A stretch of 64,000 bases of DNA from assembly GCA_963664435.2 (NCBI GenBank), contig CAXXKM010000001.1, positions 1,440,001 through 1,504,000 on the forward strand, given 5' to 3'. The first letter of the stretch is position 1, and each line of letters begins with the position of its first letter. The DNA is from Longimicrobiales bacterium. GTDB lineage: Bacteria > Gemmatimonadota > Gemmatimonadetes > Longimicrobiales > Gaopeijiaceae. Positions 979-31,814 of this stretch are shown here, piece after piece. A program made the translations under genes and the position numbers. Under the pieces are notes generated by a model. That model worked only from the letters and a program-made list of their open reading frames with translations. It did no database searches and was not told the DNA's origin.

Positions 979-1045
979 CAGGCTCATTGAGCGACCTTGG
1001 ATCTCGCGTCGTCGCCGTCCAGCAATGGCAGGCCTGCACCCCCCC

Positions 1046-12062: not shown

Positions 12063-12311
12063 CTTCGTTCTATCGTCCTTGCATCGGTTCCTGGTGTCCT
12101 GGCCCTGCGGTCTCTTCCTTCCGGTGCTGCGGTCTTCTGTCCGGGTCCCGCAGCTTCCCTGTCGTCTGCCAGCCCTGGCCGACGTTTCTGCGCTGCCCGC
12201 AACCCTGACGTTACGTCATGCGGTATCAGGTTGGTATCTTCCTGTGAGCGTTAGAGTTATGGAATTGGAAGGCCGGGTTCCCGCTATTTGACTCCCGCCG
12301 AATTGCGAGCC

Positions 12312-13469
12312 TCAGCCGCGAGGTCTCGGGCGGGCTTCCAGTGCCTTCCGAAGCTGTCCTTCGTCGGCTCGCTGGTAACACTGAAGCACCGTCTTGGCGG
12401 TCTTCCAGCCTCCAAGGTCGCAGAGGACCTTGAGCGGCTGCTCCATGAGGTCGCTCGCGAACTTGCGTCTCAACGAGTGCCAGCCCCGCCCACGCTTGGG
12501 TTCGAGTCCCGCGAGCTTCTGGGCTCGGTTCCACCAGAAGCGCACCAGCGTCCGGCCCGCGCACCGCGACGGATCTCGTGGTGCGGGGAGCACCGGAGCA
12601 ACCTCGATCCCGGCGCTCCGCTCTCGCGCCTCCTCAAGGACGGCGACCGCCTCGGCCGTCATCGGAGTCCGGTGTTCGTAGCCGGTCTTCTCGTGTTCGG
12701 CCCTCCACCGGATGGCTCGGGCTTCAAGGTCGATATCCGGCCACCTGAGGTGGCGGATCGCGCCGATTCGGTGTCCGGTCTCGTGCGCGAGCACCAGCGC
12801 GACGTGGAAGCGCCAATCGACCTCCCGGGACACCCCGAGAAGCGCCTGGTACTCCTCCTCGGACAACACGACCCGGGTCGGGTTCTTCTCCGTGGGCGTC
12901 TTCAGACCCTTCAGCGGGTTCGAGCCGAGGAGCAGCCGGCCATCCTCGTCCTTCGACTTGGCGGCCCAGTTGAACACGGCGATCAGGAACTTCAGGTCGT
13001 GTTCGATCGTCGCGTCGGACACCGGTTTGCCGCTCGCTCCGACCTTGCCCGCGCGCCGCGCCCGGATGAACCGGTCCCAGTCGCGCCGGGAGAGCGTTGA
13101 AGGCTTGCGGCCTCGTCCGAAGAACCCGAGGAACATCCTCGTCGCGGCCCGGTCGGCCCGCTGGGACGCCTCCGCCTTGGTGGGCGTCACCTCTTCACCG
13201 TAGATTTCAAACAGCTTGTCCAGCGTGAGCGGTTCGGGCTCGGCCTCCGTTTTGCCGTCGGGCGCGTCGATGAAGCCTGCGGCGAATTCGTCCGCCTGCC
13301 TCTTCGCGCGTCTCCATTCGCGATGTTGGAGCGACCGGCTCAGCCTGCGCCCGTTCTCGCGCCACTCGATCTGGAACATGCCGGTCTTCGGATCCGGAAA
13401 CACCCGGACCCGGTTCCGGCCCCATTCACCGGCGCCGTAGCTCCGGCGCTTTCGTTTCGTGCGTGCCAT
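12312..13469 (-). CDS. Tyrosine recombinase / site-specific integrase
   Basis: Full catalytic set: ETGHR (R), EHEKT (K), WHSLRR (HxxR), LGGW (W), QCYQ (Y); basic N-terminal arm-binding-like domain. Start at 13469 or 13472. Confidence 0.92.
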   Translation of the reverse strand: MARTKRKRRSYGAGEWGRNRVRVFPDPKTGMFQIEWRENGRRLSRSLQHREWRRAKRQADEFAAGFIDAPDGKTEAEPEPLTLDKLFEIYGEEVTPTKAEASQRADRAATRMFLGFFGRGRKPSTLSRRDWDRFIRARRAGKVGASGKPVSDATIEHDLKFLIAVFNWAAKSKDEDGRLLLGSNPLKGLKTPTEKNPTRVVLSEEEYQALLGVSREVDWRFHVALVLAHETGHRIGAIRHLRWPDIDLEARAIRWRAEHEKTGYEHRTPMTAEAVAVLEEARERSAGIEVAPVLPAPRDPSRCAGRTLVRFWWNRAQKLAGLEPKRGRGWHSLRRKFASDLMEQPLKVLCDLGGWKTAKTVLQCYQRADEGQLRKALEARPRPRG

Positions 13470-13489
13470 CATTCGATTCCTCGCGTGAT

Positions 13490-13505
13490 GGACTGCACGA
13501 TCTGC
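13490..13505 (-). promoter_or_regulatory. GCAGATCGTGCAGTCC box upstream of the integrase start, shared with the element right ends
   Basis: 16/16 identical to 904-919; GCGCAGATCGTGCAG is 15/15 identical to 30839-30853. Confidence 0.6.
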
Positions 13506-13546
13506 GCGAAGGAAACTTCGCACACGGCAGGCTTCTTGACCAGCGT

Positions 13547-15087
13547 AGTCTTGTCCAACGGCAAATGAGCCTGAACGCGGGGCCGGTTTCCAGCGGGAAG
13601 TGAGCCTGAAGGCCGGGGCGAAGAGATCATTGGAGGATGATCGTGACACTTCGCACCGAACGAATCCGGACGCTCGACCAGATGCGCGCCTTCGTGGAGG
13701 GCAGCGAACCTGCGGACTTCCAGATCACCGACCGCACTTCCGCCTACGTCTTCGTCCGCCGCACGCTGGTCCGCTTCGAGTACCACGGCCTCGGGAAGCC
13801 CGACAAGGGGCTGGTGAAGCGGTTCCTTGAGAAGGTGACGGGCATTTCACGCGCCCAGATCACCCGCCTGATCCGACAGCACCGCCGGACGGGCCACATC
13901 CGCGACCACCGCAACAAGCCCCCGGCCAACGCCTTCCGGCGGCGCTACACGCCCCACGACGCCGCTCTGCTCGCCGAGGTCGACGAAGCCTTCGGCCAGC
14001 CATCCGGACCCGCCACCAAGGTGGTCCTGCAACGCATGCACGAGGTCTACGGCGACGGACGCTTCGCACGCCTCGCCTCGATCTCCAACGGCCACATCTA
14101 CAACCTCCGCAAGACCCGCGCGTACCGGACCGGCCGCCTCACCTTCCGTAAGACCCGGTCCACTCCCGTCGCCATCGGGGTCCGCCGCAAGCCGCGGCCG
14201 GATGGCAAGCCCGGCCATCTCCGCGTCGACACCGTCCACCTCGGCGACCGCGACGACCGGAAGGGCATCTATCTCATCAACGTCGTCGACGAAGTCACGC
14301 AGTTCCAACACCTTGGAGCCGTGCCGCGCATCACCCAGCACTTCCTCGTCCCACGCCTCGAAGCCCTGCTGGCCGCCTTTCCCTTCACCATCCACGCCTT
14401 CCATGCCGACAACGGCAGCGAGTACGTCAACGGCCGGGTGGCCGCGCTGCCCAACAAGCTCCACGTCGGCGTCTTCACCAAGTCCCGGCCCCGCCACCCC
14501 AACGACAACGCGCTGGTCGAGACCAAGAACGGAGTCGTCGTCCGCAAGTGGCTCGGCCACATCCACGTCCCCCACGCCCTCGTCCCCCGGGTCAACGCCT
14601 TCCTCCACGACCACCTCTGCCCCTTCCTCAACTTCCACCGGCCCTGCCTCTTCCCCACCGAAGTCACCAGCCCCACCGGCCGAGTCAAGCGGCGCTACCG
14701 GCAACAGGACGTGACCACCCCCTACGAGCGCTTCAAGGCTCTGCCCGGCGCTGAAGCCTTCCTCCGGCCCGGCGTCACCCTCGGTGCCCTCGACCAACTC
14801 GCCGCCGCAACCACCGACCTCGACGCCGCCCAAGCCGTCCAGCGCGCCCGCGACGAACTCTTCCGCGCCATCGGCCAAGCCCGCAACTCCGCCGCGTGAT
14901 CCGACTCGCGTCAGCCGCTGGCTTGCCGGAGACCCTCCTGCCTCTCGGGCGTCCCACGGCCCGCCGGTTGCCTCTCTCCCCCGTTCAAGGAGATAATGAT
15001 ACACCCTCAACTGCCACCTGCCCCGGCCTCGGGCCTCACCCCTCGCACCTTCCCCGGTTCAGGCTCATCTCCGTATTGGAAAAGACT
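13547..15087 (+). mobile_element. 1541-bp insertion sequence with imperfect 29/30-bp IRs and 4-bp GCGT target duplication
   Basis: IRL AGTCTTGTCCAACGGCAAATGAGCCTGAA (13547-13575); IRR reverse complement AGTCTTTTCCAATACGGAGATGAGCCTGAA (15058-15087); GCGT at 13543-13546 and 15088-15091; extra subterminal copy at 13587-13610. Confidence 0.88.
13637..14899 (+). CDS. DDE transposase with integrase core (rve-like) domain
   Basis: LRVDTVH (D), FHADNGSEY (D), NDNALVETKN (E); N-terminal HTH-like segment; GGAGG RBS. Confidence 0.92.
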   Translation: MIVTLRTERIRTLDQMRAFVEGSEPADFQITDRTSAYVFVRRTLVRFEYHGLGKPDKGLVKRFLEKVTGISRAQITRLIRQHRRTGHIRDHRNKPPANAFRRRYTPHDAALLAEVDEAFGQPSGPATKVVLQRMHEVYGDGRFARLASISNGHIYNLRKTRAYRTGRLTFRKTRSTPVAIGVRRKPRPDGKPGHLRVDTVHLGDRDDRKGIYLINVVDEVTQFQHLGAVPRITQHFLVPRLEALLAAFPFTIHAFHADNGSEYVNGRVAALPNKLHVGVFTKSRPRHPNDNALVETKNGVVVRKWLGHIHVPHALVPRVNAFLHDHLCPFLNFHRPCLFPTEVTSPTGRVKRRYRQQDVTTPYERFKALPGAEAFLRPGVTLGALDQLAAATTDLDAAQAVQRARDELFRAIGQARNSAA

Positions 15088-15838
15088 GCGTAAGGACATG
15101 CTCTCCCAAGCCGATCCGAAGGGCGGATTCCGTGCGGTTCGGGGCCGTAGCGCGAGTGTCCGTTCGACATCGGGGGCGACCGGACACGAAATCGTGTTTC
15201 CGACGGACAAGCCGCTGGTCCGCCATGTCGTTGGACGGCTTGCAGTTGCGCCTCGCCCAGACGAGCGGCCGTGACACGCGGGCGCTGGCGGGCGTGGCCG
15301 GAGCGACCCCCCGATTTCGATGGCTGGCGTGCCATCGAGGAGTTCGGCATCGGACACGCCCATGCCGTCCTCCGTGGGAGGTCGCTCCGGTCCAGCGATC
15401 CCTGCGGGAAGGCCAAACGGCGAGCCGGGGCGGTGCGTCCCGGTTTTAGCCAGCGCTACCGGACAGCCGACCGGCCGGCCGGTCGGCCAACGGGTCCTCC
15501 TCCGTCTCGAAGTGGCGCTCACATCGCCTTCCCGCGCAGGGATCGCTGGTCTGGGAGCGACCCGAGGGGGCGGGGGCGGGGTGCGCAAACGCGCACGACC
15601 CCGAACCCGCAGCAGTCACTCGGACTGCCGGGTCGCTCCCAGCCCCGTCCGAACGAGCCCTGCGGCCCCGGCCGTCCGGGACAACGAGGCGCAAGACCTT
15701 TGCGCGCTACGGCTTCCGCCGCCCCGCCGGTGCGCACGTCCGGAGCGCCGGGGTGCGCATCGGCACCCTATGTCGTTTTCGCGGTCCGGTACGGCTCTAT
15801 GTCGTGCGCCGCGCCGTCCACCGAGGCTGGCGGATGAA

Positions 15839-16486
15839 TCAGCTTTGCGCCGCCTTCATGATCTCGGCCACATAGTCATCCAGACGGGCCATGACCCCGA
15901 TGGTTTCCGCCTGACTCTCCGCGTTCGCGATTTCCTTGGCCAGATCCAGCAGCAGACGGCGGACTGCGGCTGGGTCGCCCGTCCCCGTCGACGGCGCATC
16001 GGCTCCAGCGGTCTCCTCAGCCGGTGGTGCATCCGGTTCCGGCGGTGCCTCCGGATCAGCCGCTGCGTCCCTTGCGAGCCGCGCCTTCACTTGGAGGGGG
16101 TATTTCGCATGGAACTGCCGGGCCGAGAGGTCCGCGACGGAGGGGTCGATCTCGCGGGCACCCGCGAACAGGTCCGCGTTCGAGATGCCGGGGTCCGCTT
16201 CGAGCGTCCGCGCCACGAACTCCATGACGGCGGCTCCGTCGCCGGATGGTGCGGGCACGGCGGCGGGCGCCGGGTCCGCCTTCGGTTGCCGTGCGGGCTG
16301 TGGCGGCGGCGCTATCCTCCGGGTCGCGGGCAGCCGATACTTGGCGTGAAACTGTTGCAGCGTAAGCTCCCCGACCGACTCGTCGATCTCCAGGGCACCG
16401 GCGAACAAGGTCTTGTTCTTCGCGCCGGGGTCCTTCTTCAGTTCGTCTACCATGTACTCCATGACGGCATCATGCGAGCTGCCCAT
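15839..16486 (-). CDS. Hypothetical protein with two copies of a ~55-aa helical domain plus a C-terminal helical domain; putative DNA-binding protein
   Basis: AVMEY...DPG..N..LFAGALEIDESVGELTLQQFHAKY and AVMEF...DPG..N..LFAGAREIDPSVADLSARQFHAKY, separated by Pro/Ala linkers. Confidence 0.75.
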   Translation of the reverse strand: MGSSHDAVMEYMVDELKKDPGAKNKTLFAGALEIDESVGELTLQQFHAKYRLPATRRIAPPPQPARQPKADPAPAAVPAPSGDGAAVMEFVARTLEADPGISNADLFAGAREIDPSVADLSARQFHAKYPLQVKARLARDAAADPEAPPEPDAPPAEETAGADAPSTGTGDPAAVRRLLLDLAKEIANAESQAETIGVMARLDDYVAEIMKAAQS

Positions 16487-16985
16487 GTCGTTACCCTTTC
16501 AGAGGCCAGGTGCGCGCCGGATGGACGCGGGCAAATCGGGAATTGCCCTGTCGGGAAAACTCGAAGAGTGTTCGGGGAGCGTCAATGTCGCCGGTTCGAC
16601 ATCGCCCCCGCCTTCGACCGCGTAGATCTCGCCCGCGTGCCGGGAGATTGCCGACCTCAGCCCGGAAGGGCGCCGCGTGCGTCCCGCCGCGTACCGGAAG
16701 CCCTAAGCGGCGCCTCGGGAGCGTTTCGCGGGCGTCCGAACGGGCTGGCTTTAGCCACGCTACCGTGGCTCAGCCAGCACACGCGATGTTGAACATTCGC
16801 GGTCTGGCCAGGGGGACGCTGCGTCCCCCCTTGAACCCCCGGCTTCCCGCGCCGCTGAGAGATCAGCGGACGGGCGCAGGAAGACGCCCTTGCCGGGTGG
16901 AGGGGAGAGCACGTAGGCTCGAACGGTGCAATTTCTGCGGCAATGAGTGCCGCCCCCTTTTGACTCGGAGAGAGAGATCGCGAGA

Positions 16986-18998
16986 ATGACCGAACGACCG
17001 GATGTCCCCGGAGCGCTGAACTTTCCCGCTCTCCGCGAAGACTTCGTTCCGCTTCCAGCGAGTGAGCCCGATGGTTTCCGGCACGTGCTCTTCGTTGGCA
17101 CGACCGGTGCTGGGAAGACGACCCTTGTCCGGCAGCTTATTGGCACCCATCCCGCCACGGAACGCTTTCCGTCAACCTCGACTGCGAAGTGCACCATACA
17201 CGATACGGAGATCATCCTAGGCCAGGCCCCGTGGCGGGCGGTTGTCACGTTTGTTTCGAGTGACCAAGCCCGTGGGCATCTGAACGAATGTATCTCTGCG
17301 GCACTCCTCGCGGTTATTCGAGGGGAAGACGATGCGACCGTGCTCCCGCGTCTGCTGGACCATGTCGAACAGCGGTTTCGCTTCAGCTACGTGCTCGGAC
17401 GAGGGCCGACCACGACGCAGCGGTCCGGGTTGTTTGGTGATGAAGACGAGGGGCGCGATGGGGGAATTGGCGAGCTTGGGGGCGAGGCGGTGGGTATCGA
17501 CTTGACCGCTACGAACGAGCTGCTCACGCGCTCCCTGACAAGACTCCGCAGCCTAGCGGGGCAGCTGCGAGAGCGAGTCCGCGCCACACTGCTGTTGAGC
17601 GAAGACGATCAATCGGAGGAGAACGAAGACGTTATCCAGGAGTTGTTGGAAGAGGAACACGAGGCCGAGCTGAAGGACACAGATGTCCGCGAGATTGCTG
17701 ATCCCTTGATGGACGAAATCGAAAAGCGCTTCGGTCTGCTCCCGGCGAGTTCCTTAACGAGAACGCCGCAAGGTTGGCCTCTGACGTGGTGCGGAAGCTG
17801 GCCCGCGGAGGAGCGCGGCGAGTTTCTCGGGTCGGTCTCGCGGTTTTCGAGTAACTACCGGCCCCTGTGGGGTCAACTCCTGACGCCCCTGGTAAGTGGG
17901 ATTCGTGTCGCCGGCCCGTTTGCTCCTAGGTGGAAGAGCGGACGGGCTCCCAAGCTCGTATTGTTCGATGGTCAAGGCTTAGGACACACCCCGAAATCGT
18001 CGTCTTCGGTGTCCACAGCATTGAGTCGACTCATCGATGCGACAGACGCGGTGGTTCTCGTGGACAACGCCGCACAGCCTATGCAGGCTGCGGCACTCGC
18101 AATCATGGACGAGCTTGCGAGCACCGGCAACGGACGCAAGCTGATCTTGGCCTTTACCCACCTCGATCAAGTCCAGGGTGACAGCCTTCCAACCACCAGC
18201 GACAAAGCTAGGCACGTGTTGGAATCGGCAGAGAACGCGATCTCCGCCCTCCGCGATCCCTACGCCCAGCGCGTTCTTCGAGAGCGACTGCATGCAGCCA
18301 GCTTCTTCTTGGCGGACCTTCAAGAGCAGCTTCCAGAACACACTACTTCCGGTCGCCGCACTATCAAGCAACTCGTGGGCCTACTGGATGCCGTCGACCA
18401 AGTAATCGAAAGGCCGCAGCCCACGGAAGCGTCTCCGATCTACGACCGACTCACTCTCGTCGCTTCGATTCTTCGCGCGCTGGAAGCCTTTCACGAGGAG
18501 TGGCGACCCACGCTCGGTCTTGGCCCCCGGCGGAGCGAGAAGAGACATTGGGCAACGATCAAGGCACTGAGTCGGCGCCTCGCCGAAATGGGAGAGGACG
18601 AGTACGGTGGTCTACGACCAGTTGCGGACCTGCGGAAGAAGCTGGTGGTCCGAATCAACCGTTTCATCCGCAAGCCCTCACGATGGGAGGGTCCCGAGGC
18701 CACTGAGGAGGAGAAAACGGAGAAGTACGCTTCTCTCGCCAGTAGCTTGGGTCGGCGGCTAACCGATCTATCGGACCGTCGTGTCTGGTCGGAGCAAATG
18801 CACCTCTGGAAGCGCGCATTCTCGCGACGCGGGCGAGGGTCGACCTTTGTTCGAGCCGAGATTATCGGCAATGACATCTACGAACGCGCGGCACCAGTCG
18901 CGGACGACACACCCTCGTCGGTCCGCAACCGGTGTCTGCGAGACGTAGTTGACGAATTCGAAGCTGCTGCGGACGAAGTTGGAGCGCAGATCATATGA
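16986..18998 (+). CDS. Large P-loop GTPase with dynamin-like motif arrangement
   Basis: G1 GTTGAGKT, G2-like STAKCT, G3 LFDGQG after a long helical insert, G4-like FTHLD; visibly lower GC than the flanks. Confidence 0.75.
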   Translation: MTERPDVPGALNFPALREDFVPLPASEPDGFRHVLFVGTTGAGKTTLVRQLIGTHPATERFPSTSTAKCTIHDTEIILGQAPWRAVVTFVSSDQARGHLNECISAALLAVIRGEDDATVLPRLLDHVEQRFRFSYVLGRGPTTTQRSGLFGDEDEGRDGGIGELGGEAVGIDLTATNELLTRSLTRLRSLAGQLRERVRATLLLSEDDQSEENEDVIQELLEEEHEAELKDTDVREIADPLMDEIEKRFGLLPASSLTRTPQGWPLTWCGSWPAEERGEFLGSVSRFSSNYRPLWGQLLTPLVSGIRVAGPFAPRWKSGRAPKLVLFDGQGLGHTPKSSSSVSTALSRLIDATDAVVLVDNAAQPMQAAALAIMDELASTGNGRKLILAFTHLDQVQGDSLPTTSDKARHVLESAENAISALRDPYAQRVLRERLHAASFFLADLQEQLPEHTTSGRRTIKQLVGLLDAVDQVIERPQPTEASPIYDRLTLVASILRALEAFHEEWRPTLGLGPRRSEKRHWATIKALSRRLAEMGEDEYGGLRPVADLRKKLVVRINRFIRKPSRWEGPEATEEEKTEKYASLASSLGRRLTDLSDRRVWSEQMHLWKRAFSRRGRGSTFVRAEIIGNDIYERAAPVADDTPSSVRNRCLRDVVDEFEAAADEVGAQII

Positions 18999-19134
18999 AC
19001 GGCACGGAGGGCGATGCGGTGCCGGGGGAATAGCGGCTTGGCTCGCCACTGGCGGATCGTCCACTGGTTCGGGTGGCAGGCAGGGGCTATCTACCGCTCT
19101 AACTCCGCAGGACTTCGTGTCGTTCAGGGATCGA

Positions 19135-19212
19135 AGGGGCGGAGCCCCTCGCCAGCCCCGTTGTATGACAAGGGGTAGGCTGGCTTGTCTACCTTAGCGA
19201 TGTCCGACAAGC
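19135..19212. other. Cluster of inverted repeats; candidate oriT-like site
   Basis: AGGGGC-gga-GCCCCT (19135-19149), GCCAGCC...TTGT-atg-ACAA...GGCTGGC (19151-19184), GGCTTGTC...GACAAGCC (19182-19212). Confidence 0.4.
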
Positions 19213-19675
19213 CCCTCCGCCGCGGCCACGGACGTTCCGGTGCGGCCCGGCAAGTCGGCCCGTTTGACGTGCTCGCGCCCGCGCCCGATCCCCCAAACGC
19301 CGGGCTCTGGTTTCACCCGGCGACCGAGCCCCGCGCGCCGACGGCGCATCGCGCCGTCTCGTGGTAGCCGTCCGGGAAGCCCGCCCTCTGCGGCCCAAGG
19401 CGACCACGCCGCCCGGCAAGCTAGCGCTGGCGATCCGCCCGGCGCGCCGGGCGGTCCGGCAGAATCCCGCGTGCTACCTGGCCGCGCCCGCACAGGGAAT
19501 GGCTCCCTTCGATGGCAACGCATGGTGGCGCCTGATACGTGACTACTCGCGTTCGGTTGATACCGCCGCTTGCCCGCAGCGGTGCCCCATCCTCGGAAAC
19601 GGGCGAAGGGGCCGACCCATACGAACCCTCCTCGCCTCGGTCGCGGGTGGAAGAAAGATCCCGGGGTCAGGCGTG

Positions 19676-20026
19676 TCACGAGGTTCCCTCGCACCGCACG
19701 GAGCGCTCCACCGCGCTGAAGAGCCGGATGTTGCCCTGCCCCCCGCCCTCGACGCTGAAATCCCCGCCCGCACGGCACTGCGCCAGGGTTGCGCTGTCGA
19801 GATTGAGCTGCGCGCAGGCGGCGGCCAGCGCCTCTCCCAACGCCTCTTCGCGCGACGCGCCCGTGCCCGTGCCGCTTCCCGAGCCGGACGGCGAGGACAT
19901 CGAGCCGAAGGTCGAGGGCACGAGCGTCAGCGTCACGCTGCACATCCACGCCTCGCTCTCCATCATGCTTTCGCAGGCCACCACGGCACACAGTGCGAGC
20001 AGCGTGCTTCTCAGTCTGACCCACAT
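19676..20026 (-). CDS. Small lipoprotein of unknown function
   Basis: AGGAGGAG RBS; LALCAVVAC lipobox-like signal; four further Cys. Confidence 0.7.
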   Translation of the reverse strand: MWVRLRSTLLALCAVVACESMMESEAWMCSVTLTLVPSTFGSMSSPSGSGSGTGTGASREEALGEALAAACAQLNLDSATLAQCRAGGDFSVEGGGQGNIRLFSAVERSVRCEGTS

Positions 20027-20053
20027 GGATTCTCCTCCTTGTTTGGCGTTGCC

Positions 20054-21046: not shown

Positions 21047-23760
21047 GACTTCGTCACTTCGTTTTCGCTCTTGTACTTGCCGCGGACGCCGGCGGCGGTG
21101 ATATCGCCCACCATGCGGTACTTGCCCGATGATGCGTTGTTCAGGTTGTAGCCGCACAGGCTATCCGTCTTCTTCGTGCCCGCGATGTCCTGCCAGCCGG
21201 ACCCTGAGTCTCGCTGCCACCATGTCTCGTGAAAGTCCCATCTCTTCCCGTTGAACGTGCCGTTGGCGGCCAGACAACCCGTATTGCCCGCGCCGAGGCT
21301 GATTCCCCCGACCTGCAACCGAACCCCGCCAGTGTTCGTGATCTTCAGTCCGGTGAGCGTCTTGAAGTCGCCGCCGGTGTCGCCCGCGACCGTGACGCTG
21401 AACGCCTGTTCGGCGGCGAGGCCGCCGGGGTCTCTGGCCGTCACGCGAATCGTCGCTTCGCCATCGGCCACCGCCTTGACGGTTACCGTGTCCCCCGAGA
21501 CGGATGCCGTCGCGACGCTCGCGCTCGAGGAACTGGCCGTGTAGGTGAGGGCGTCGCCGTCCGGGTCGCGGAAGTAGTCGGAGGCGTTCACCGTCGTGCT
21601 GTCGCCCGGCTTCAGCGTTTTCGCGGATATGGAGCCCACGGTCACGGGCGATTGGTTGCTGCTTCCGCCGCCCACGGTCACTTCATTCTCGCTCCTGTAC
21701 TTGCCGCGAACGCCGCCAACGGTGAACTCGCCAACAAACCGGTACACGCCGGCCTTCGCGCTTGCGAGACCGTATCCGCAAAGCTGCCCGTTCTTCCGGG
21801 TGCCGGAGACCTGAGCCCAGGCGGAACCGGCGACGTTGTCCCTTCTCTGCCATTCGGTCCAGTGAACCTCGTAACTCACGCCGTTGATGGTGACCCGACT
21901 GGTCCCAAAGCATCCGCTGTTCGTGAAGTTCCCCCACTTCAGAGCGCCCGCTTGCGTGATCGTCAGCCCGCTTATCGTCTTGTAGTCGCCCCCGGTGTCG
22001 CCCGCCACCGTGACGCGAAACGTCTGTTCCGCCATGAGGCCGCCGGGGTCGGTGGCGGTGACTCGGATGGTTGCAGTGCCTTCCGCCACGGCCGTGACCG
22101 TCCCGATGTCGCCGGACAGCCGCACCGTCGCCACGCTCGTGTTCGAGGACGTGGCGCTAAACGACAACGCGTCGCCGTCCGGGTCACTGAAGTAGTCCGA
22201 TGCGTCCCCCTCGATGCTATCCCCCACCGCGATCACCGTGTCGGGTATGGAACCCACCTTCACAGGGGACCGATTGTCCGAATCGCAGACCGGACCTCCG
22301 TTGTAGCTGTCCTCGTCGATCGCGGCAATCGAGGCGAGCCACGCTTGGAAGCCGATCTCGGCGGGCGAACACAGGTCGGTGCCATGCCAATAGAACGCGT
22401 CGAGTAGCAGGGCCTGCAAATCCAGCGGAAGCGGCCCCGCCAGACCCCCGTTGTTGCTGATCGCCAAGCTGTGCAGGTCGGTGTTCCCAAGTTCGGCGGG
22501 GACCGGCCCGCTCAGTTCGTTGTCGTGCAGCCACAGCACCCGCAGGTCCTCCCAGGCACCATACGACTCCGGCGTGGGAATGGGGCCTGTCAGCTGATTG
22601 TCGTAGAGCCACAACGCCTCGAGATTCCGGAGGCCGGCCAGCTCGGACGGGATCTCGCCGGTCAGCTTGTTCCTCGACAGGGACAGGTTCTCGATGTAGT
22701 AGAGGTTGCCAAGTTCTTTCGGAATCGGGCCAGTCAGTTCGTTCCCCCACAGACGCAGATCGACCAGGTAGTTTCGCAGAGAGCCCAGCTCCGCCGGAAT
22801 CCTGCCCGTGAGCCTGTTGCCGCCCAAATCGAGCCGATGGAGAGACCGCATGGAGCCGACCTCCTTGGGGATCTCGCCGGTCAGCCGGTTGCGCCACAAG
22901 TACAGTCGCTCGAGCCGCGTCAAAGCTCCCACCTCCGGCGGGATCTCACCGGTCAGCTGGTTGTCTTGGAGGTACAGTCGCTCGAGGTCGTTCATCGAGC
23001 CCACCTCCGGCGGGATCTCGCCGGTCAGCCGATTACGTCCAAGCGACAAAACTTCGACGTCGTCCAATGCGCCCAGCTCCGGGGGGAGCGATCCGTCCAG
23101 CCCGCGGTTGTGAAGGTAGAGCCTCTCCACCCCAAAGGTGCCGAGGACCACGCCGTCCCACTCCGTCATCACGGTTGCGGTGTCCCAGTTCAATGACACC
23201 GTGCCGCGCAGTTGGTCCATCGCGGCGAGCAGCGCGTCGCAATCGTCGTCGAAGAAGAGCCAACCGCGTTCGAAATCCAGGGCCGGCGAATCGCGGTGAC
23301 AGACCTCGGGAATGTCCAAGTCCAGACTCCGCGCGATGTTGCTCGCCGCGTTGCCGGCGTTGTCTAGCCTCGCGGGGCTGCGAGCAGGCTCGTCGGTGCG
23401 TGTGGAGTCCGGGACACCGGAGGCCGGCACCAGCCCGTCCAGTTCGTCGTCACGCTCGCCGGCCGAGGGATACCCCAACTCGCTCTCCCGCTCCAATCGA
23501 TCGAGTTCCGCCGGGCCTATCCCGTGAATAGCAAGGCTGGGATTGAGCGGCACGTCAACCGGCGTGTCGTCGAAGGCAGGCGACATCGGCTCGTCGACGC
23601 AGGCGGCCAAGGTCGCGATGACGGCCACAATCAGGGTTGCCCCCGGCGTGAAGAGCTTGGGGTTGCTGGCAAGCATTGAAGGTCTCCTCTTGGATGCGTC
23701 GCGAAGTGCGGTGCTCCGTGATCGAGTTGGTGTGCCGTGGGCTCGCCGGGGCATGGTCAT
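21043..23760 (-). CDS. Lipoprotein with plant-type 24-aa LRRs followed by two [cadherin/Ig-like + Cys-containing beta domain] modules
   Basis: IATLAAC lipobox; repeated LxxLxLxxNxLTGEIPxEVG; DYFSDPDGDAL and DYFRDPDGDAL Ig-like repeats; both modules end GVRGKYxSENEVT. ATGA overlap at 23757-23760. Confidence 0.88.
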   Translation of the reverse strand: MTMPRRAHGTPTRSRSTALRDASKRRPSMLASNPKLFTPGATLIVAVIATLAACVDEPMSPAFDDTPVDVPLNPSLAIHGIGPAELDRLERESELGYPSAGERDDELDGLVPASGVPDSTRTDEPARSPARLDNAGNAASNIARSLDLDIPEVCHRDSPALDFERGWLFFDDDCDALLAAMDQLRGTVSLNWDTATVMTEWDGVVLGTFGVERLYLHNRGLDGSLPPELGALDDVEVLSLGRNRLTGEIPPEVGSMNDLERLYLQDNQLTGEIPPEVGALTRLERLYLWRNRLTGEIPKEVGSMRSLHRLDLGGNRLTGRIPAELGSLRNYLVDLRLWGNELTGPIPKELGNLYYIENLSLSRNKLTGEIPSELAGLRNLEALWLYDNQLTGPIPTPESYGAWEDLRVLWLHDNELSGPVPAELGNTDLHSLAISNNGGLAGPLPLDLQALLLDAFYWHGTDLCSPAEIGFQAWLASIAAIDEDSYNGGPVCDSDNRSPVKVGSIPDTVIAVGDSIEGDASDYFSDPDGDALSFSATSSNTSVATVRLSGDIGTVTAVAEGTATIRVTATDPGGLMAEQTFRVTVAGDTGGDYKTISGLTITQAGALKWGNFTNSGCFGTSRVTINGVSYEVHWTEWQRRDNVAGSAWAQVSGTRKNGQLCGYGLASAKAGVYRFVGEFTVGGVRGKYRSENEVTVGGGSSNQSPVTVGSISAKTLKPGDSTTVNASDYFRDPDGDALTYTASSSSASVATASVSGDTVTVKAVADGEATIRVTARDPGGLAAEQAFSVTVAGDTGGDFKTLTGLKITNTGGVRLQVGGISLGAGNTGCLAANGTFNGKRWDFHETWWQRDSGSGWQDIAGTKKTDSLCGYNLNNASSGKYRMVGDITAAGVRGKYKSENEVTKS

Positions 23761-26700
23761 CGTTCGTTCCCACGGTTCGGGATCCCCCGGCTGAAAAGGA
23801 CCTCGATGTCTTGGGCATTCGCCGCTGCCGCGGCGGGTACGCGGCTCGGGGCCGGGGCCTGTGGCGCACCGTCGAGGATGCCCCGGATCCGGCCGGTTGC
23901 CGGGTCGCGCAGAATGGTCATGGGCAGATCGGTGTCGCGGTCGAGGCCGATCGAGCCGCCCGGGCCTTGCAGCGTGATCGCCACGAGTTCCTGCGTCCAT
24001 GTGACCGGCACGGCGAACGAGAACCCGGCACGCTGGTCCTCGGTGTCGGTGAACTCCGACATGGCGAAGGCCAGGGAGAACAACTCCGTGCCCGCGTCGT
24101 CCGTCCCGGTGAGCGACCATGGACCGTCGGCTTCCGGAAGCGCGGGCGGGGCGTCGATGAAGAAGGAGGGCCTGAGGCGCGGCGCTCCTTCGCCGTCCAG
24201 ACCGCCCCATACGAGCAGCGCGCGGCCGGAGGCGGCCTGGGCGACGTCCGCGGCGGCGATCAGGATCGAGCCGGTCTCGGTCTCGAGGCGGTAGCGGACG
24301 GCGTTGGTGAACTGGTAGTCGCTCGTCCAGGTGGGCTCGCAGTAGGACATGAAGTCCGGCTGGCCCGGCGGCACAAGCTCGCCGGTGCCGAAGTCGTAGC
24401 CCCACGCGCCGATGTTGCCCTCCCCGTAGGGATAGTACCGGTCCGGACCGCCGGCTCCGCCGCATGGCGCGTGGTAGAGATTACGGTTGTGGCCGAACTC
24501 GTGCGCGATGGTTTCGGAGTCGAGGACCGAGAAGCTCGACCAGCTTCCGATGCCGTTCGCCACACCGAGGAGACCGCCCGGCCCCGTGGGTCCGGCCATG
24601 ACCGCCAAGTAGTGGCCGCGCCCGCCCTCGGCGACCCGGATCATCTCGGCCTCCGCGAGGAGCTCGAACCCGTTGTTTGTGGACGTTGCTACGGGCGGGT
24701 GCGCGGTCGCGTCGATCTCGGAGACCGGCAGCAGCAGGTGCGTGCGCTCGAACAGTTCGTGGCCCTCCGGGTCGGCGGCCATGGCGGCAACCGTCGCGAT
24801 GATCGAGGAGTCCGGACTCTCCTGCCAGATGAAGGGCACCAGCGTCACCTCGAAGACCGGCATCGCGCGCACATCCACCGCCATCCGGCCCGCGGCGGGG
24901 ATCCGGCGCGCCACGCCCAGCGCCGGATCGAGCGTCCCGTCCGGATCCGGCTCGATCACGACCTCGAGACCGGGCTGGATCACCCGGCCGGGGATCTCCG
25001 CGTTCACGGACCTCCCCAGGGAACTCTCGTCGATCTTCGCGGGGATGAGATCGGACGCGCCGGGAATGTCCGCCACGTGGGTCACGGCTCCGTCCCGGTA
25101 GAAGGTGGCCCGCACCGGGGGCATGGCGGCGGCTCCTTGCTTTGCCGTGACGAACACGCGTAGCAGCGCGGACTCGCCAGCGACCAGCGGCACCGGGAAC
25201 TCGCGGGACTGGACGGCCTGCGTAAGATAGGCGGCCGCGTCGCCGTCACGGGCACAATGCGCCACCCGCTGGCGCGTCACCCCTTCGAGCCAGTCGAGGA
25301 ACTCCGGGTCCGCCGGCGCGCACAGGCCGGTCCCGGTCGTGTGCAGGTCCTCGAGATGCTCCAGCGCCGTCAGGCCCAGGGGAAGGGGGCCGGCCAAGCC
25401 GGCGTTGCCGGCAAGACCCAGACTCGCAATGCCCGTGAACTCGAGCAGCCCCACGGGCAGGGAGCCGCTGAACTTGTTGGACGAGAGGTCCAGAATCTCC
25501 AGGCTCGGAAAGCTGACGGAACGCGAACGCACGGCCCTCGAAGACCGATCCCGTCTCGTCCAATCCTGGCCCGCAAGGTGCCCTAATTCGTCCGGTTTCG
25601 TAGAGACGGCCATCGACCGGATGCCTTGGGAACTCTCCCAAGGACTGCGCGGTTCCCTCAACGTTTTGTGGGCGGCGGGCGGATCGCTGGCGGACAGCGC
25701 AAGGCGCTGCGCAACACCTGCCCCGACGAGCCCCGTTGGAACGTCGGTCAGTTGGTTACCGGCAAGATCCAGAAAGGACAGGTTCGGCAGCGTGGCGAGT
25801 TCCCGTGGGAACGACGCGAACTTGTTGGACGCGAGTTCCAGCAGTTCCAGGCTCGCCATCCCGCCGAGTCCCGGCGGGACGGACGAAAGCCGGTTGTGTT
25901 CGAGGGCCAGCCATTCCAGGTTCCCCAGGTTACCCAAGTCGTTCGGGATGGACGTCAGATCGTTTTGATGAAGCCACAGAACTTCGAGATTGTCCAGACG
26001 GCCCAGTTCCCTGGGGACGGACGAAAGCCGGTTCGAGCCGATATCCAGCAATAGGAGGCTGACAAGGCTGCCGAACTCCGGTGGAACGGATGTCAACATG
26101 TTGGCCCCGAGTCGCAGCACCTGGAGGTTGTGCAGTTCGCCGAGATCCGCCGGGACGGTCATCAGTTCGTTGCCAAGGATCCACAGCACCTGCAGGCTTG
26201 CCAAACGGCCCAATTCTGGGGGAACAGACGTCAATCGGTTGTATTCGAGGGCAAGCTCTTTCAGGCTGACCAACCCACCCAGCTCCGCCGGGACGGACGT
26301 CAATTGGTTGTTGTTGAGGTGAAGCTCCTGCAAGCGGGGCAACGCGCCCAACTCCGCCGGGATGGGGCCCGAAAGCGAGTTGATCGAGAGGGCAACGTAT
26401 TCGGCCCCGGCCAGCGCGCCCAACTCCGCCGGGATGGACCCGCTCAACTGATTGCGATGGAGGGCCAACAACTTCAGTTCGGTCAGCTCGCCCAACTCGG
26501 GCGGAATCGGCCCGGACAGCCTGTTCCCCCAGAGGCTCAGCGTTTCCAGCTCGGTCAGCTCGCCCAACTCGGGCGGGATCGGCCCCTCCAGTCCATTCCT
26601 CACCAACTTCAGGCTCACGACCCGTCCGTCCGCGTCCGTTTCCACGCCGTACCATGTTCCGAGCGGAGCATCGGCCAGCCAGTTGCCGGACTCCTCCCAG

Positions 26701-28004
26701 TCGGGTCCATCCGTCCCCTCGTACAGGGCTGTAAGGATCTCGCGGTCGGACAGCGGCGGGCATTGCACCCCCGTGCCCTCGTGCCGCGCAAGGCCGGAGA
26801 GCCACTCTTGGAACGATCCTCCGGTCGGAGCGCACAGGCCCGTGTTCGCATAGCGCAGCTCCTCGAGCGGTGTGCGGGAGAGCCCGGTCGGCAGCCGGCC
26901 GGAAAGGGCCGGGTTGTCGCCGATAAGGAGACGGGTCATCGAAGCTAGGTCGCCCAAGCTCGCGGGCAGGCGGCCGACGAGCCCGTTGGCGGCGAGAGCG
27001 AGCGATGCCACCCTGCCGGTGGAATCGGTCTCGACGCCGTACCAGTCCTCCAAGACAACGTCGCCCACCCAGCCGTCCGAGTTCTTCCAGCCCGAGCCAC
27101 CGGTCGTCCGGTGCAGGTCTTCGAGCACCTGAGCGTCCAACTCATTGCAGTATGGGCCCCTAACAATCCGAATGCCCTGTAGCCAAGCCACGAACCGCGC
27201 GGTGCCCGGGGCGCATAGCCCACGATTCCACGCAAACTCGAAGAGAGTGAGGTTAGTCAGCTTCAAGAAGCTCTGGGGAATCAGGCCGGTTAGCTGATTC
27301 CCGTCGAGGCTAAGCTCCACCAGTTTCGTAAGATTGCCGAGTTTGACCGGGATCGTCCCAGTGAGGTCGTTGCCGTGGAGTTGCGCGTATTGCAAGTTGA
27401 CCATGCCACCGAGTTCCGCAGGTATGATGCCTGATAGTTCGTTGCCTGCGAGGCTCATCTGGCCGACGTTGGCCAGATCGCCTAAGCTCGGCGGAATGGG
27501 ACCCGTCAACCTGTTGCGGGCGAGCCAAAGAGTTCCCAGGTTGGCCAGCCGACCCAATTCGGCAGGGATGAGACCGGACAGGTTGTTGTCGGCCATATCA
27601 AGCCGAACGAGTTGAGCCAACCTGCCCAAGTCGGATGGCATGCTGCCCGACAGCCCGTTCTCTTCGAGTTCGAGTGCGGTAACCCGTCCGGCCGCATCCG
27701 TCCGCACGCCGTGCCAGTCCCCGAGCGGCGCATCGGTCAGCCAGTTGGTGTCATTGACCCAATTCGGCCCGTCGGTTGCGTTGTAGAACGCGACCAGGAT
27801 GTCGCGGTCGCCGGCCCGTGCCATCACCATCGCGCCGGGTGCGGCACCGTTTGCGACGGCCGTCGGCGGCGGACCGACTACCGGCTCGTCCGCGCAGGCG
27901 GCAACCCATGCAACCGCCAGGAGCGTGGCTGCCCGAACGCTCGCTTGCCACGCGCTCCGCGCCGGCTGCGGCTGAATGCGATGGAGTTGAAGTTCGCTTC
28001 TCAT
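23757..28004 (-). CDS. Large LRR lipoprotein with C-terminal zinc metalloprotease domain (M66-like)
   Basis: VAWVAAC lipobox; three LRR N-cap modules (e.g. DRDILVAFYNATDGPNW); 24-aa and 23-aa LRR blocks; HEFGHNRNLYHAPCG zinc motif with a DFMSYC Met-turn. Confidence 0.9.
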   Translation of the reverse strand: MRSELQLHRIQPQPARSAWQASVRAATLLAVAWVAACADEPVVGPPPTAVANGAAPGAMVMARAGDRDILVAFYNATDGPNWVNDTNWLTDAPLGDWHGVRTDAAGRVTALELEENGLSGSMPSDLGRLAQLVRLDMADNNLSGLIPAELGRLANLGTLWLARNRLTGPIPPSLGDLANVGQMSLAGNELSGIIPAELGGMVNLQYAQLHGNDLTGTIPVKLGNLTKLVELSLDGNQLTGLIPQSFLKLTNLTLFEFAWNRGLCAPGTARFVAWLQGIRIVRGPYCNELDAQVLEDLHRTTGGSGWKNSDGWVGDVVLEDWYGVETDSTGRVASLALAANGLVGRLPASLGDLASMTRLLIGDNPALSGRLPTGLSRTPLEELRYANTGLCAPTGGSFQEWLSGLARHEGTGVQCPPLSDREILTALYEGTDGPDWEESGNWLADAPLGTWYGVETDADGRVVSLKLVRNGLEGPIPPELGELTELETLSLWGNRLSGPIPPELGELTELKLLALHRNQLSGSIPAELGALAGAEYVALSINSLSGPIPAELGALPRLQELHLNNNQLTSVPAELGGLVSLKELALEYNRLTSVPPELGRLASLQVLWILGNELMTVPADLGELHNLQVLRLGANMLTSVPPEFGSLVSLLLLDIGSNRLSSVPRELGRLDNLEVLWLHQNDLTSIPNDLGNLGNLEWLALEHNRLSSVPPGLGGMASLELLELASNKFASFPRELATLPNLSFLDLAGNQLTDVPTGLVGAGVAQRLALSASDPPAAHKTLREPRSPWESSQGIRSMAVSTKPDELGHLAGQDWTRRDRSSRAVRSRSVSFPSLEILDLSSNKFSGSLPVGLLEFTGIASLGLAGNAGLAGPLPLGLTALEHLEDLHTTGTGLCAPADPEFLDWLEGVTRQRVAHCARDGDAAAYLTQAVQSREFPVPLVAGESALLRVFVTAKQGAAAMPPVRATFYRDGAVTHVADIPGASDLIPAKIDESSLGRSVNAEIPGRVIQPGLEVVIEPDPDGTLDPALGVARRIPAAGRMAVDVRAMPVFEVTLVPFIWQESPDSSIIATVAAMAADPEGHELFERTHLLLPVSEIDATAHPPVATSTNNGFELLAEAEMIRVAEGGRGHYLAVMAGPTGPGGLLGVANGIGSWSSFSVLDSETIAHEFGHNRNLYHAPCGGAGGPDRYYPYGEGNIGAWGYDFGTGELVPPGQPDFMSYCEPTWTSDYQFTNAVRYRLETETGSILIAAADVAQAASGRALLVWGGLDGEGAPRLRPSFFIDAPPALPEADGPWSLTGTDDAGTELFSLAFAMSEFTDTEDQRAGFSFAVPVTWTQELVAITLQGPGGSIGLDRDTDLPMTILRDPATGRIRGILDGAPQAPAPSRVPAAAAANAQDIEVLFSRGIPNRGNER

Positions 28005-28017
28005 GTCGTCCGGTCCT

Positions 28018-29934
28018 TTACCCGTCTCCGCCACGCTGTCCGTCGAGCGGGGCGTATACGTGGATTCGGATGGCCGATGGGTCGCGAGCGGCCCGGCCGT
28101 GCCCGGCCGAGGGCGCGGCGATCGTCAGCCGCGCGCCATCGGAGCAGTTGTTGCGCGTGTTGGATTCGTCCGTCACGGCATTGACGCACAGGCCGATGTA
28201 GATGGTGCCCGGCGCGCTGCCGGCGTTGACCGAGATCGTTAGCGGGAACGCACGTTCCTCCTTGGCGCGTAGCGGCGCAAACGAGTACGACCCGATCTCG
28301 GTGTCGCGGGCGCTGATGATCGGATTCGGGGACCTCATGGCGCGGATCCTTGTCGCCCCCGACGCGACGGTGCCCTGGTTGCGGACGTGGAACATGAACG
28401 TCGCCGATTCGCCCGGCGTCAGCATAGCGAAGACCGGTGCCACGCCCGTGAACGTGAGGTCCGGTCCAAGCGCCACGACGGTGGCCTCGAAGGTCTGGGT
28501 GGCGGTAAGCCCTCCGGGGTCGGAGGCGGAGACCGTGATCGTGGCGGAGCCCTGAGCGAATGCCGCGATGGTGAGGGTCGAGCCCGACACCGAAACGGCG
28601 GCGACCGACGGGTCCGACGACGACGCGCCGTAGCTGAGCGCGTCCCCGTCGGGATCCGTGAAGTGCACCGAGACATCGACCGTCGCCGTCTCGCCGGCGT
28701 GGACCGTCTGGTCCGGCATCGGGATCGCCGGTTCGGGCGCCCGGTTGGGAACAGTCGTCTCGAAGGTCTGGGTGGCGGTAAGCTCTCCGGGGTCGGAGGC
28801 GGAGACCGTGATCGTGGCGGAGCCCTGAGCGAGTGCCGCGATGGTGAGGGTCGAGCCCGACACCGAAACGGCGGCGACCGACGGGTCCGACGACGACGCG
28901 CCGTAGCTGAGCGCGTCCCCGTCGGGATCCGTGAAGTGCACCGAGACATCGAGCGTCGCCGTTTCGCCGGTATGGACCGTCTGGTCCGGGATCGGGATCG
29001 CCGGTTCGGGCGCCCGGTTGGGAACAGTCGTCTCGAAGGTCTGGGTGGCGGTGAGCCCTCCGGGGTCGGAGGCGGAGACCGTGATCGTGGCGGAGCCCTG
29101 AGCGAATGCCGCGATGGTGAGGGTCGAGCCCGACACCGAGACGGCGGCCACCGACGGGTTCGACGACGACGCGCCGTAGCTGAGCGCATCCCCGTCGGGA
29201 TCCGTGAAGTGCACCGAGACATCGACCGTCGCCGTCTCGCCGGCGTGGACCGTCTGGTCCGGCATCGGGATCGCCGGTTCGGGCGCCCGGTTGGGAACAG
29301 TCGTCTCGAAGGTCTGGGTGGCGGTAAGCTCTCCGGGGTCGGAGGCGGAGACCGTGATCGTGGCGGAGCCCTGAGCGAGTGCCGCGATGGTGAGGGTCGA
29401 GCCCGACACCGAAACGGCGGCGACCGACGGGTCCGACGACGACGCGCCGTAGCTGAGCGCGTCCCCGTCGGGATCCGTGAAGTGCACCGAGACATCGAGC
29501 GTCGCCGTTTCGCCGGTATGGACCGTCTGGTCCGGGATCGGGATCGCCGGTTCGGGCGCCCGGTTGGGAACAGTCGTCTCGAAGGTCTGGGTGGCGGTGA
29601 GCCCTCCGGGGTCGGAGGCGGAGACCGTGATCGTGGCGGAGCCCTGAGCGAATGCCGCGATGGTGAGGGTCGAGCCCGACACCGAGACGGCGGCCACCGA
29701 CGGGTTCGACGACGACGCGCCGTAGCTGAGCGCATCCCCGTCGGGATCCGTGAAGTGCACCGAGACATCGACCGTCGCCGTCTCGCCGGCGTGGACCGTC
29801 TGGTCCGGCATCGGGATCGCCGGTTCGGGCGCCCGGTTGGGAACAGTCGACGGTGCCGCTGGCCCATCGCCGCAGGCCGCCGTCAGGATCGTCGCCAATA
29901 GCGCGACGCCGACATGGTTGCCTTGGGGTCTCAC
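28018..29934 (-). CDS. Lipoprotein adhesin with five cadherin/Ig-like repeats and a C-terminal CARDB-like domain
   Basis: ILTAAC lipobox; 5 x 91-aa NRAP...FTDPDGDALSY...SDPG repeats; PDLT...VRNQGT...VTDESNTRNN CARDB-like pattern; GTG start. Confidence 0.88.
   Translation of the reverse strand: MRPQGNHVGVALLATILTAACGDGPAAPSTVPNRAPEPAIPMPDQTVHAGETATVDVSVHFTDPDGDALSYGASSSNPSVAAVSVSGSTLTIAAFAQGSATITVSASDPGGLTATQTFETTVPNRAPEPAIPIPDQTVHTGETATLDVSVHFTDPDGDALSYGASSSDPSVAAVSVSGSTLTIAALAQGSATITVSASDPGELTATQTFETTVPNRAPEPAIPMPDQTVHAGETATVDVSVHFTDPDGDALSYGASSSNPSVAAVSVSGSTLTIAAFAQGSATITVSASDPGGLTATQTFETTVPNRAPEPAIPIPDQTVHTGETATLDVSVHFTDPDGDALSYGASSSDPSVAAVSVSGSTLTIAALAQGSATITVSASDPGELTATQTFETTVPNRAPEPAIPMPDQTVHAGETATVDVSVHFTDPDGDALSYGASSSDPSVAAVSVSGSTLTIAAFAQGSATITVSASDPGGLTATQTFEATVVALGPDLTFTGVAPVFAMLTPGESATFMFHVRNQGTVASGATRIRAMRSPNPIISARDTEIGSYSFAPLRAKEERAFPLTISVNAGSAPGTIYIGLCVNAVTDESNTRNNCSDGARLTIAAPSAGHGRAARDPSAIRIHVYAPLDGQRGGDG
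28488..29848 (-). repeat. Five near-identical 273-bp tandem repeats in A-B-A-B-mosaic order
   Basis: ccggttgggaacagtcg recurs at 28741, 29014, 29287, 29560 and 29833; diagnostic residues alternate between units. Confidence 0.95.
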
Positions 29935-29983
29935 TGCCCGCTACCCGCCTTGGCGGCGGCTCCCCAACCCTAACCGATCAATG

Positions 29984-30259
29984 CTACTGAATTGCGGCGA
30001 ATGTGCGCGACAGCGGTGCTGACGTGGCCCGCGAGAGCCGCAAGGAAGAAAAGGAGGGGGTCGGTGGGTGGACAGAGAAAGCGCCGATGCGCGGGAAATC
30101 GCCGAGTTTATAGCCGGCTCGGCTCGGCTCGGCTCGGCTCGGCTCGGCTCGGCTCGGCTCGGCTCGGCTCGGCTCGGCTCGGCTCGGCTCGGCTCGGCTC
30201 GGCTCGGCTCGGCTCGGCTCGGCTCGGCTTCTTAACGATGCCCCGTAATCAATACTCAT
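29984..30259 (-). other. Putative leader ORF containing the pentanucleotide tract (SRAEP repeats)
   Basis: ATGs at 30259, 30277 and 30307 read in frame through (GAGCC)n to TAG at 29984; translation is unproven. Confidence 0.4.
30116..30229. repeat. Perfect pentanucleotide simple sequence repeat, (GGCTC)22 + GGCT
   Basis: Counted directly; about 180 bp upstream of the surface-protein operon. Confidence 0.97.
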
Positions 30260-30966
30260 GGCCGAGTCAACTCCCATCGCTCCGGCTGTCGGCTTCTCAG
30301 GAATCATGAAAGCTACAGAAGGCTCCCCTCGCCAGCAAACGCCATGGGTGACCGGGGGAGGTGCAGGCGCATCCGCGCGATGCCCATCATCGGTGCGTCA
30401 GGTGCCTTCGCGGGCGACCGCCTCCGCCTCGCGCCCGTCCGGTCGCTCCTTCGGGCAACGGTGGCGGTCTCCGCCACCACCGCGTTCCCTACCCCTCGTG
30501 AACCCAAGATCCGTCGATCACGGCGGCGTTCCGGTTCGTAGCTCCCCCGAAATCTCTCACAAACGTCCGAAAATGGCCTGTGAGCCCGTCGTGGAAATGC
30601 CGGTGCGCCAGATCAGGTCTCGGTGCCCGCGAGTCGGCTCGCGGCAGCGGCCGGCACCGCGCCCCTGCAGGTTGGACCGCCGATGCGCCCGAACGACACG
30701 GCGCTTCGGCACATGTGCGAAGCAGGCCTCCGGGAACTTCGGCGAAGAGGAGGAGCGGGGCGCGGAAGTCCCGCCAATCAAGTACGTTTTTCCCGCTTTC
30801 GCGGCACGGCCCAGCAAGGTTCAGTACAACGGCAGGAAGCGCAGATCGTGCAGCCCTGTATGACTTTATAAGATTTTCTGCCGTGATGCAGGCCACCCTT
30901 GCTCCGCCGTTACGTGAGGGTTGGTGCGGGTGATCGTTCCGTTACCGTCCGTCGTCCTTCAGCGGC

Positions 30967-31782: not shown

Positions 31783-31814
31783 GGGTCCTCCCGGAAGGCG
31801 CGTCAGCGATGTCG

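Follow-up and report, generated by a model that had tools for sequence, protein, structure and literature searches.

How sponge symbionts acquire and swap eukaryote-like proteins is an open question, and the locus analysed here raises it in concrete form. In the window (the whole 64,000-nucleotide stretch that was analysed, G000:C1:1440001-1504000, where G000 is the window's own genome), an 18.7-kb block with genes for LRR/Ig surface proteins lies between two host genes. Is this block a mobile element, what brought it to this site, and how could it move between cells? An earlier note, made from the sequence, had described a compact integrative element that has a short core and arm-type repeats and moves LRR/Ig/protease cassettes. 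That description agrees well with what was found, including related cargo at a different place in another genome of the genus, G005. Going further, we consider it probable (roughly 0.8), from sequence comparison, that this element, itself without a relaxase, belongs to a large family of integrative mobilizable elements (IMEs) in sponge-type Longimicrobiales, and that it targets a TipA-class operator.

The element is bounded by the core CGTTACG, at 12209 and 30908. To its left lies a host aldehyde dehydrogenase gene (10455-12062, minus strand; Pfam Aldedh, E 2.6e-123) and to its right a host creatininase-family gene (30967-31800, minus strand, start approximate; Pfam Creatininase, E 4.7e-34), the same two flanks that the earlier note had named. 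The repeat CGTTACGT that it had reported near the integrase stop (12209-12216) and at 30908-30915 is present at both positions, and the integrase reading frame ends at 12312. The repeat itself therefore stands, but not its reading as an 8-bp core: other copies differ from base 8 on, so the true overlap is 7 bp (CGTWACG). Among 37 junctions of the integrase clade described below, CGTTACG occurs 20 times, CGTAACG 16 times and a variant once. The comparison of these junctions places the integrase-proximal overlap at 12209-12215, next to the left half of the host's TipA-class operator palindrome (attL, B arm; 12200-12208, by sequence comparison). At the distal junction, the overlap (30908-30914) is followed by the host right operator arm (30915-30923). 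Reading both junctions together gives the palindrome expected from joining the flanks. The TCCCGC pairs noted inside both ends were also located: a direct-repeat pair at 12279 and 12293 (12279-12298, plus strand), putative arm-binding sites whose spacing to the core is constant throughout the family, and a distal pair of putative arm sites at 30769 and 30791 (30769-30796, plus strand). No tRNA gene had been seen by eye, and ARAGORN likewise gives 0 in the window.

With 51 strand-counts genome-wide, the 8-mer CGTTACGT is weak evidence by itself, and the element was therefore judged to be real from an empty-site comparison with same-genus genomes, the search that had been proposed as a check. 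The aldehyde dehydrogenase and creatininase genes adjoin without an element in 16 of 18 such genomes. In G005, a related element of about 40 kb occupies the same junction, while G015 yielded no creatininase side and was uninformative. Only two of the 16 element-free junctions (G014 and G018) hold an intact palindrome, so the site is optional at this locus. Locus comparison also found sites that are filled in one genome and empty in another.

The presumed recombinase is a 386-aa tyrosine integrase (12312-13472, minus strand; Pfam Phage_integrase) with the catalytic R-K-H-R-W-Y set (R235, K262, H332, R335, W356 and Y366). An alignment-based fold (pLDDT 93; a single-sequence fold reached 42 only) has an N-terminal beta-sheet and helix resembling an arm-binding domain, a core-binding domain and a catalytic domain, and Foldseek matches this model to XerA, Tn1549 Int and lambda Int at 16-20% identity. 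In its modelled domains and catalytic residues, the protein is an arm-binding tyrosine integrase. A 13-bp motif ahead of its start (13493-13505, minus strand) has an inverted repeat copy at 30841-30853. An IS with an rve/IS481-like transposase (13637-14899; Pfam, NCBIfam) occupies 13547-15087 (plus strand) with a 4-bp GCGT duplication and sits 75 bp upstream of the integrase start. The IS-free form is found in G348 and G356, and as a contig joint in 4/4 runs. In this copy, the insertion may have lowered integrase expression. Neither the IS nor the two oriT-like sites described below had been noticed in the earlier note.

The integrase is far from unique in its genome. A tblastn search returned 31 matches, fragments included, at 68-97% identity, representing about 30 family elements, and the integrase is present in 17/18 genus genomes. 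In all copies, the spacing between the TCCCGC arm repeats and the junction is constant, and both element ends are conserved; the proposed alignment of homologue flanks thus returned the end motifs and the core. The integrase's best genome matches bear the names Longimicrobiales, Gemmatimonadota or Ca. Palauibacter, apart from a few bins otherwise labelled, and the named runs containing the stretch are mostly sponge metagenomes. No plasmid or viral homologue was found, and the viral contigs held no close integrase.

In a 113-row integrase tree, one 37-member clade (FastTree support 0.94) stands out by its target. A half-operator adjoins the integrase end in all 37 members and in 0/76 other rows, and 34 of the 37 half-palindromes have at most one mismatch. 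Four of the 113 rows were assigned by eye (L089 and L070 outside the clade target, L060 and G000 C2:285979 as members), and the 37 rows represent fewer loci, since there are 34 loosely distinct flanks, several of them tipA promoters of different genomes. A further 30 loci, whose places partly overlap the earlier set, gave the motif in 17/19 in-clade rows and 0/11 outside; the remaining two in-clade rows have the core with a worn arm. Other integrase clades target tRNA genes, coding genes, mobC, oriT-like sites and sibling integrase genes. Sister clades at G000:C2:913691, C3:622951, C3:625307 and L110 appear to be inserted in the oriT-like motif itself. Spanning tRNA genes, coding genes, oriT and operator at more than 70% identity, this target series offers a natural set for studies of integrase retargeting.

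What, then, is the palindrome? From its sequence and setting, it is a predicted TipA-class (MerR) operator that occurs in many copies. The earlier note was right about a palindromic target outside tRNA genes, but the site is not specific to this locus. G000 has seven copies at one mismatch, genomes of the genus have 0-20, and a reversed control gave 0. Across 300 phylum genomes, two or more copies (2-35) occur only in genera g1 and g20, the two that hold the integrase clade, with 0-1 elsewhere. The outgroup single copies that were inspected lie in a TTGAC-type promoter ahead of a MerR gene; the tipA-promoter-type arrangement was found in 11/12 loci, with an HTH motif downstream in 10. In G000, the tipA-like gene has Pfam MerR and TipAS domains, and its promoter palindrome sits in the 19-bp spacer between the -35 and -10 boxes. 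This corresponds to the MerR rule of a dyad within a 19-20 bp spacer, as given in the available part of PMC5045206. Compared by eye with the tipA/mta/skgA probes in the accessible text of PMC7762955, this promoter agrees with 18 of the first 21 bases of the skgA probe and with 20/26 of the mta probe. Dyad, 19-bp spacer and MerR+TipAS gene come together at the tipA copy but not at most dispersed copies, the window's own copy among them.

The tipA promoter is itself a frequent target. An element end adjoins the tipA operator in 11/15 genus genomes, in both orientations. Insertion there also alters the promoter, whose -35 box is kept or rebuilt in six genomes and removed in five. G042 has an early-branching clade member at its tipA promoter and no other palindrome match, which fits an origin of the clade at this promoter, in a tree without a root test. 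At G000:C2:285143-315790, nested and tandem elements fill the tipA promoter, and the last end restores the -35 box and half an operator. Clustering of sites near one chromosome region, as for parS or matS, was looked for and not seen.

The dispersed copies track the tipA gene and not the integrase, in genomes that are related. Among 36 genomes at least 90% complete (G003, G012 and G015 were dropped for completeness), at least two palindrome copies occur in 27/30 with tipA and 0/6 without, with P = 4e-5 overstated because related genomes are not independent. No family integrase turned up at 1e-100 in G165, which has 35 sites, and G297 has 29 sites and one tRNA-targeting integrase. There are exceptions on either side: three tipA-positive g20 genomes and G042 have no dispersed copy, G015 (67% complete) has five sites and no tipA match, and G338, G339 and G344 (110-230 contigs) gave no TipAS match but carry in-clade integrases. 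None of the conclusions draws on G025. Across 77 sites, selected with both the core and the free position unconstrained, fixed positions agree at 89-99%, the free arm position at 71% and the centre at 48%. Most dispersed copies, rather than forming promoters, are intragenic or sit where two genes converge, which counts against a simple regulon; in G165, reading the sites found a tipA-type promoter at 1/35 and a TTG at the arm in two. One intragenic copy lies in a gene that we take to encode 2-oxoglutarate dehydrogenase E1. Its TTA codon, a triplet that makes up 0.1% of Leu codons, is kept in 15/18 genomes, with synonymous GC-richer codons in two that lack tipA. In G007, the housekeeping gene with the intragenic palindrome is split by an element.

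How the element could leave the cell is suggested by its relatives. G000 has 13 MOBP relaxase hits, of which nine adjoin integrase copies with mobC-like ORFs alongside, and these nine copies are the reason for regarding the family as integrative mobilizable elements. The absence of a visible relaxase, as reported in the earlier note, is correct for this copy, yet the family nonetheless uses relaxases. Within the clade, a relaxase lies within 3 kb in 4/24 loci that have full upstream sequence. The element carries instead two oriT-like sites resembling the region upstream of mobC. Site 1 (16770-16880, plus strand) is 83% identical over 105 bp to the region 5' of a mobC-relaxase pair, and site 2 (19125-19220, minus strand), with a 13-bp invariant core at 19173-19185, likewise matches regions 5' of relaxases. 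Such sites resemble the upstream regions of 9/13 relaxase hits. With its own integrase, att-bounded ends, no pore genes and an oriT apparently like that of relaxase elements, the element has the make-up of an IME. It does not have the ICE gene set (relaxase, coupling protein, VirB4), and Pfam/NCBIfam found neither mating-pore genes among its ORFs nor virion or packaging genes of a prophage or satellite. VirB4 (PF03135) and VirD4 (PF02534) had no match in G000, and PF02534 was found in 3/19 genus genomes.

The element is also a mosaic. Positions 12200-19190, minus the IS, are 95-98.6% identical to elements of G348 and G356 (both genus g20), which sit at the tipA promoter and at another palindrome, respectively. 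Positions 19125-30922 are 95-96.5% identical to a G005 element at a different palindrome, whose integrase gene is 83% identical. In the four-way alignment, the partner switch falls within the single 13-bp core at 19173-19185. Relaxase-mediated recombination between oriT sites would give partner switching at the core, and the alignment points to module exchange between elements at this oriT-like core.

These observations have to be weighed against less elaborate readings. An artefact of assembly or binning could be suspected in an uncultured, metagenome-assembled genome with many similar repeats, but is already contradicted and has a negligible chance of being right: G005 has the same junction, a difference-free contig spans the left junction in 2/4 runs (the possible source sample is not independent), and long exact cargo stretches occur in 3/4 runs. 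These run contigs reach 11300-30100, short of a (CGGCT)n microsatellite, and the distal junction is outside that span; neither they (contigs only) nor the collected loci held an excised circle or attP junction. A more serious alternative, though in our view a rather unlikely one, is an ordinary site-specific island whose integrase reads its site directly, so that the operator match has no function, the oriT-like pieces are relics and movement is mostly within the genome. A lambda-type attB normally consists of inverted arms on either side of a 7-bp overlap, the search of G000 for VirB4 and VirD4 found no helper pore, and a 13-kb sibling element, which carries two Ig-repeat genes, occurs twice in G000 (C3:59.5-72.5 kb and C2:111.5-141.3 kb) at 99.97% identity. 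Yet modules 95-99% identical in another genus require recent cell-to-cell transfer, four elements change partners inside a 13-bp oriT-like core, and the bases flanking the element's own core (TCCGC, GCGG/TCATG) are unlike the host arms, which a symmetric reading explains poorly.

The dispersed palindromes have a rival explanation of their own, in which the tipA promoter is the sole real operator and the other copies are footprints of past visits by elements, as weak sites were converted or copied. Their position, mostly intragenic or between convergent genes rather than at promoters, would suit this, as would the confinement of multi-copy sites to the two genera with the clade, the accessory blocks bracketed by identical palindrome pairs, and sites that seem newly gained, codon changes included. 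A G at the free position of at least one arm in 114/115 sites, where about eight without it would be expected, looks as if one arm had been donated. However, swapping a 7-bp overlap cannot make arms, and arms are enriched, with five perfect pairs in G000 against 0.15 for permuted arms and 15 pairs in G005; the same enrichment rules out chance arms plus a converted core. The sharp contrast between free and fixed positions, the 0-1 family integrases in the genomes richest in sites (G165 and G297), and the TTA codon kept at the housekeeping-gene site, with its GC-richer synonyms in the two genomes lacking tipA, also speak against footprints, which we regard as rather unlikely. The likeliest reading of the dispersed copies is as putative TipA binding sites.

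Parts of this system are familiar. With IMEs that pair a tyrosine integrase with a MOBP relaxase and with oriT-only IMEs (iOriT; SXT-mobilized MGIs), as covered in the available parts of PMC5704250 and bioRxiv 10.64898/2026.01.13.699239, the family shares a terminal integrase, att bounds, mobC-relaxase genes in siblings and, in this copy, a relaxase-free oriT-like site. Nesting and tandem accretion are likewise shared, whereas the roughly 30 copies per genome here differ from most IMEs, single-copy according to the IME review. The multi-copy regulator operator as target and the LRR/Ig lipoproteins as cargo are further differences. Like streptococcal IME_oriT, sister clades here insert in oriT-like sites, and also in mobC and kin integrase genes. 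Lambda Int and Tn916/Tn1549 Int have the same three-domain model, catalytic residues, 7-bp overlap and paired repeats inside both ends; lambda Int and Tn1549 Int are, however, only 16-20% identical, and no excisionase was identified here. The overlap is almost palindromic, so both insertion orientations occur. Among the tyrosine-integrase subgroups in the part of PMC8138268 available, this integrase was placed in none.

For the choice of target, the closest parallel is the res-site hunter Tn5053, which likewise inserts where a protein belonging to another system binds. According to the accessible part of PMC7765201, this DDE transposon senses res when resolvase occupies it. Here, by contrast, a tyrosine integrase inserts in the putative operator of a host transcription factor. 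An antibiotic-sensing regulator's site is an unusual landing pad, and one that provides many possible insertion places per genome. REP-targeting insertion sequences and pdif modules also use dispersed short palindromes as landing sites and include palindrome-bracketed gene blocks, whereas the palindrome here is a putative MerR-family operator and the recombinase is encoded by the element. A literature search, with subscription papers and supplements mostly outside it, found neither this family nor integrases that target operators described in any paper, and no case in which the operator of a transcription factor serves as an attachment site in many copies; TIGER-type databases may hold such islands unnamed. 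The word 'integrase' occurs 0 times in the main text of PMC10469786 (Palauibacterales). What appears to be new is the target, a host regulator operator in many copies; the oriT-only IME mode and the lambda-type integrase are known.

Returning to the IME reading, we propose the following course of events. The clade would have started out at the tipA promoter and later moved into the dispersed operators, presumably kept by the host as TipA binding sites. Sequence comparison shows its integrases recombining across the 7-bp overlap in the middle of the palindrome; insertions face either way, and the sites used are the tipA promoter and the motif's dispersed copies. Excision to a circle would be lambda-like and use the TCCCGC arm repeats, MOBP relaxases of sibling elements would nick in trans, and transfer would pass through the conjugation pore of an element not found in G000. 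A bolder and rather unlikely extension is that the integrase is an 'operator hunter' that recognises the site only, or much better, when TipA sits on it and distorts it. If so, the antibiotics that TipA senses would control when host-interaction cargo is integrated and excised, and the 2-35 dispersed operators would form a host-maintained array of landing pads that shuffles eukaryote-like proteins among sponge symbionts. A complex prediction for the TipA N-terminal dimer with the integrase scored 0.00, which is not evidence either way.

The cargo gives this vehicle, with its mapped ends, swap point and near-identical copies in two genera, its interest. An LRR and Ig-like protein of 877 aa (21043-23676; Pfam LRR, Big_2, Big_9), an LRR protein with an HExxH metallopeptidase motif of 1415 aa (23757-28004; Pfam LRR_8; M66-like, with Peptidase_M66 at E 3.8e-4, below the cut-off) and a five-Ig-repeat and CARDB protein of 638 aa (28018-29934; Pfam Big_9/Big_2 x5) are all encoded on the minus strand, and all three have predicted lipoprotein-type signals. 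Related cargo is found in the G356 element and in a 49-kb insert at a G001 palindrome. Eukaryote-like cargo, as claimed in the earlier note, is thus present here, but the family also carries much else: by motif count, 9/29 of the genome's LRR/Ig/peptidase ORFs lie in mapped elements, which cover 11% of the genome (binomial P 0.003, overstated, since such genes occur in clusters and include two duplicate pairs). By the literature on eukaryote-like proteins, the cargo may act in host interaction. Single proteins of this kind are reported to let bacteria escape sponge phagocytosis, although by keywords the repeat classes in the available part of that paper (ankyrin, TPR and NHL; PMC13747020) differ from those here. 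NCBIfam effector names on the cargo reflected sub-cut-off LRR similarity only and were rejected.

The remainder of the element comprises a non-coding block common to many family elements (15092-15840; no Rfam match), a 215-aa hypothetical protein also present in other family elements (15839-16486, minus strand; no family match), a 330-aa hypothetical protein (20054-21046, minus strand; no family match) and a 683-aa P-loop protein that is dynamin/GTPase-like at sub-threshold Pfam scores (16947-18998, plus strand). PADLOC gave no match in the element beyond this P-loop protein, whose gene has a low GC3 of 0.67. The Atlas places this protein next to unnamed clusters and an SrfC-like family. The (CGGCT)n microsatellite (30115-30229, from sequence) precedes the three surface-protein genes by about 180 bp and could be a phase-variation tract.

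Several further observations concern the palindromes and their surroundings. At window positions 833-985 lies the distal end of another family element, with CGTTACG at 971 and a worn operator arm after it; neither its partner end nor an integrase was found in the 60 kb to its left. At L217 (G005), L218 (G014), L219 and L220, accessory blocks of 3-5 kb lie between matching palindromes with no integrase seen; one block consists of an LRR-peptidase gene, and such blocks are possibly non-autonomous cassettes. A palindrome at G000:C3:891906 overlaps the start of what is presumably a GMC-type oxidoreductase gene, where codons 2-3 differ from those in G001, G006 and G008, which suggests that this site was gained. 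In G165, two cases of tandem palindromes occur, 28 and 34 bp apart (L314 and L333).
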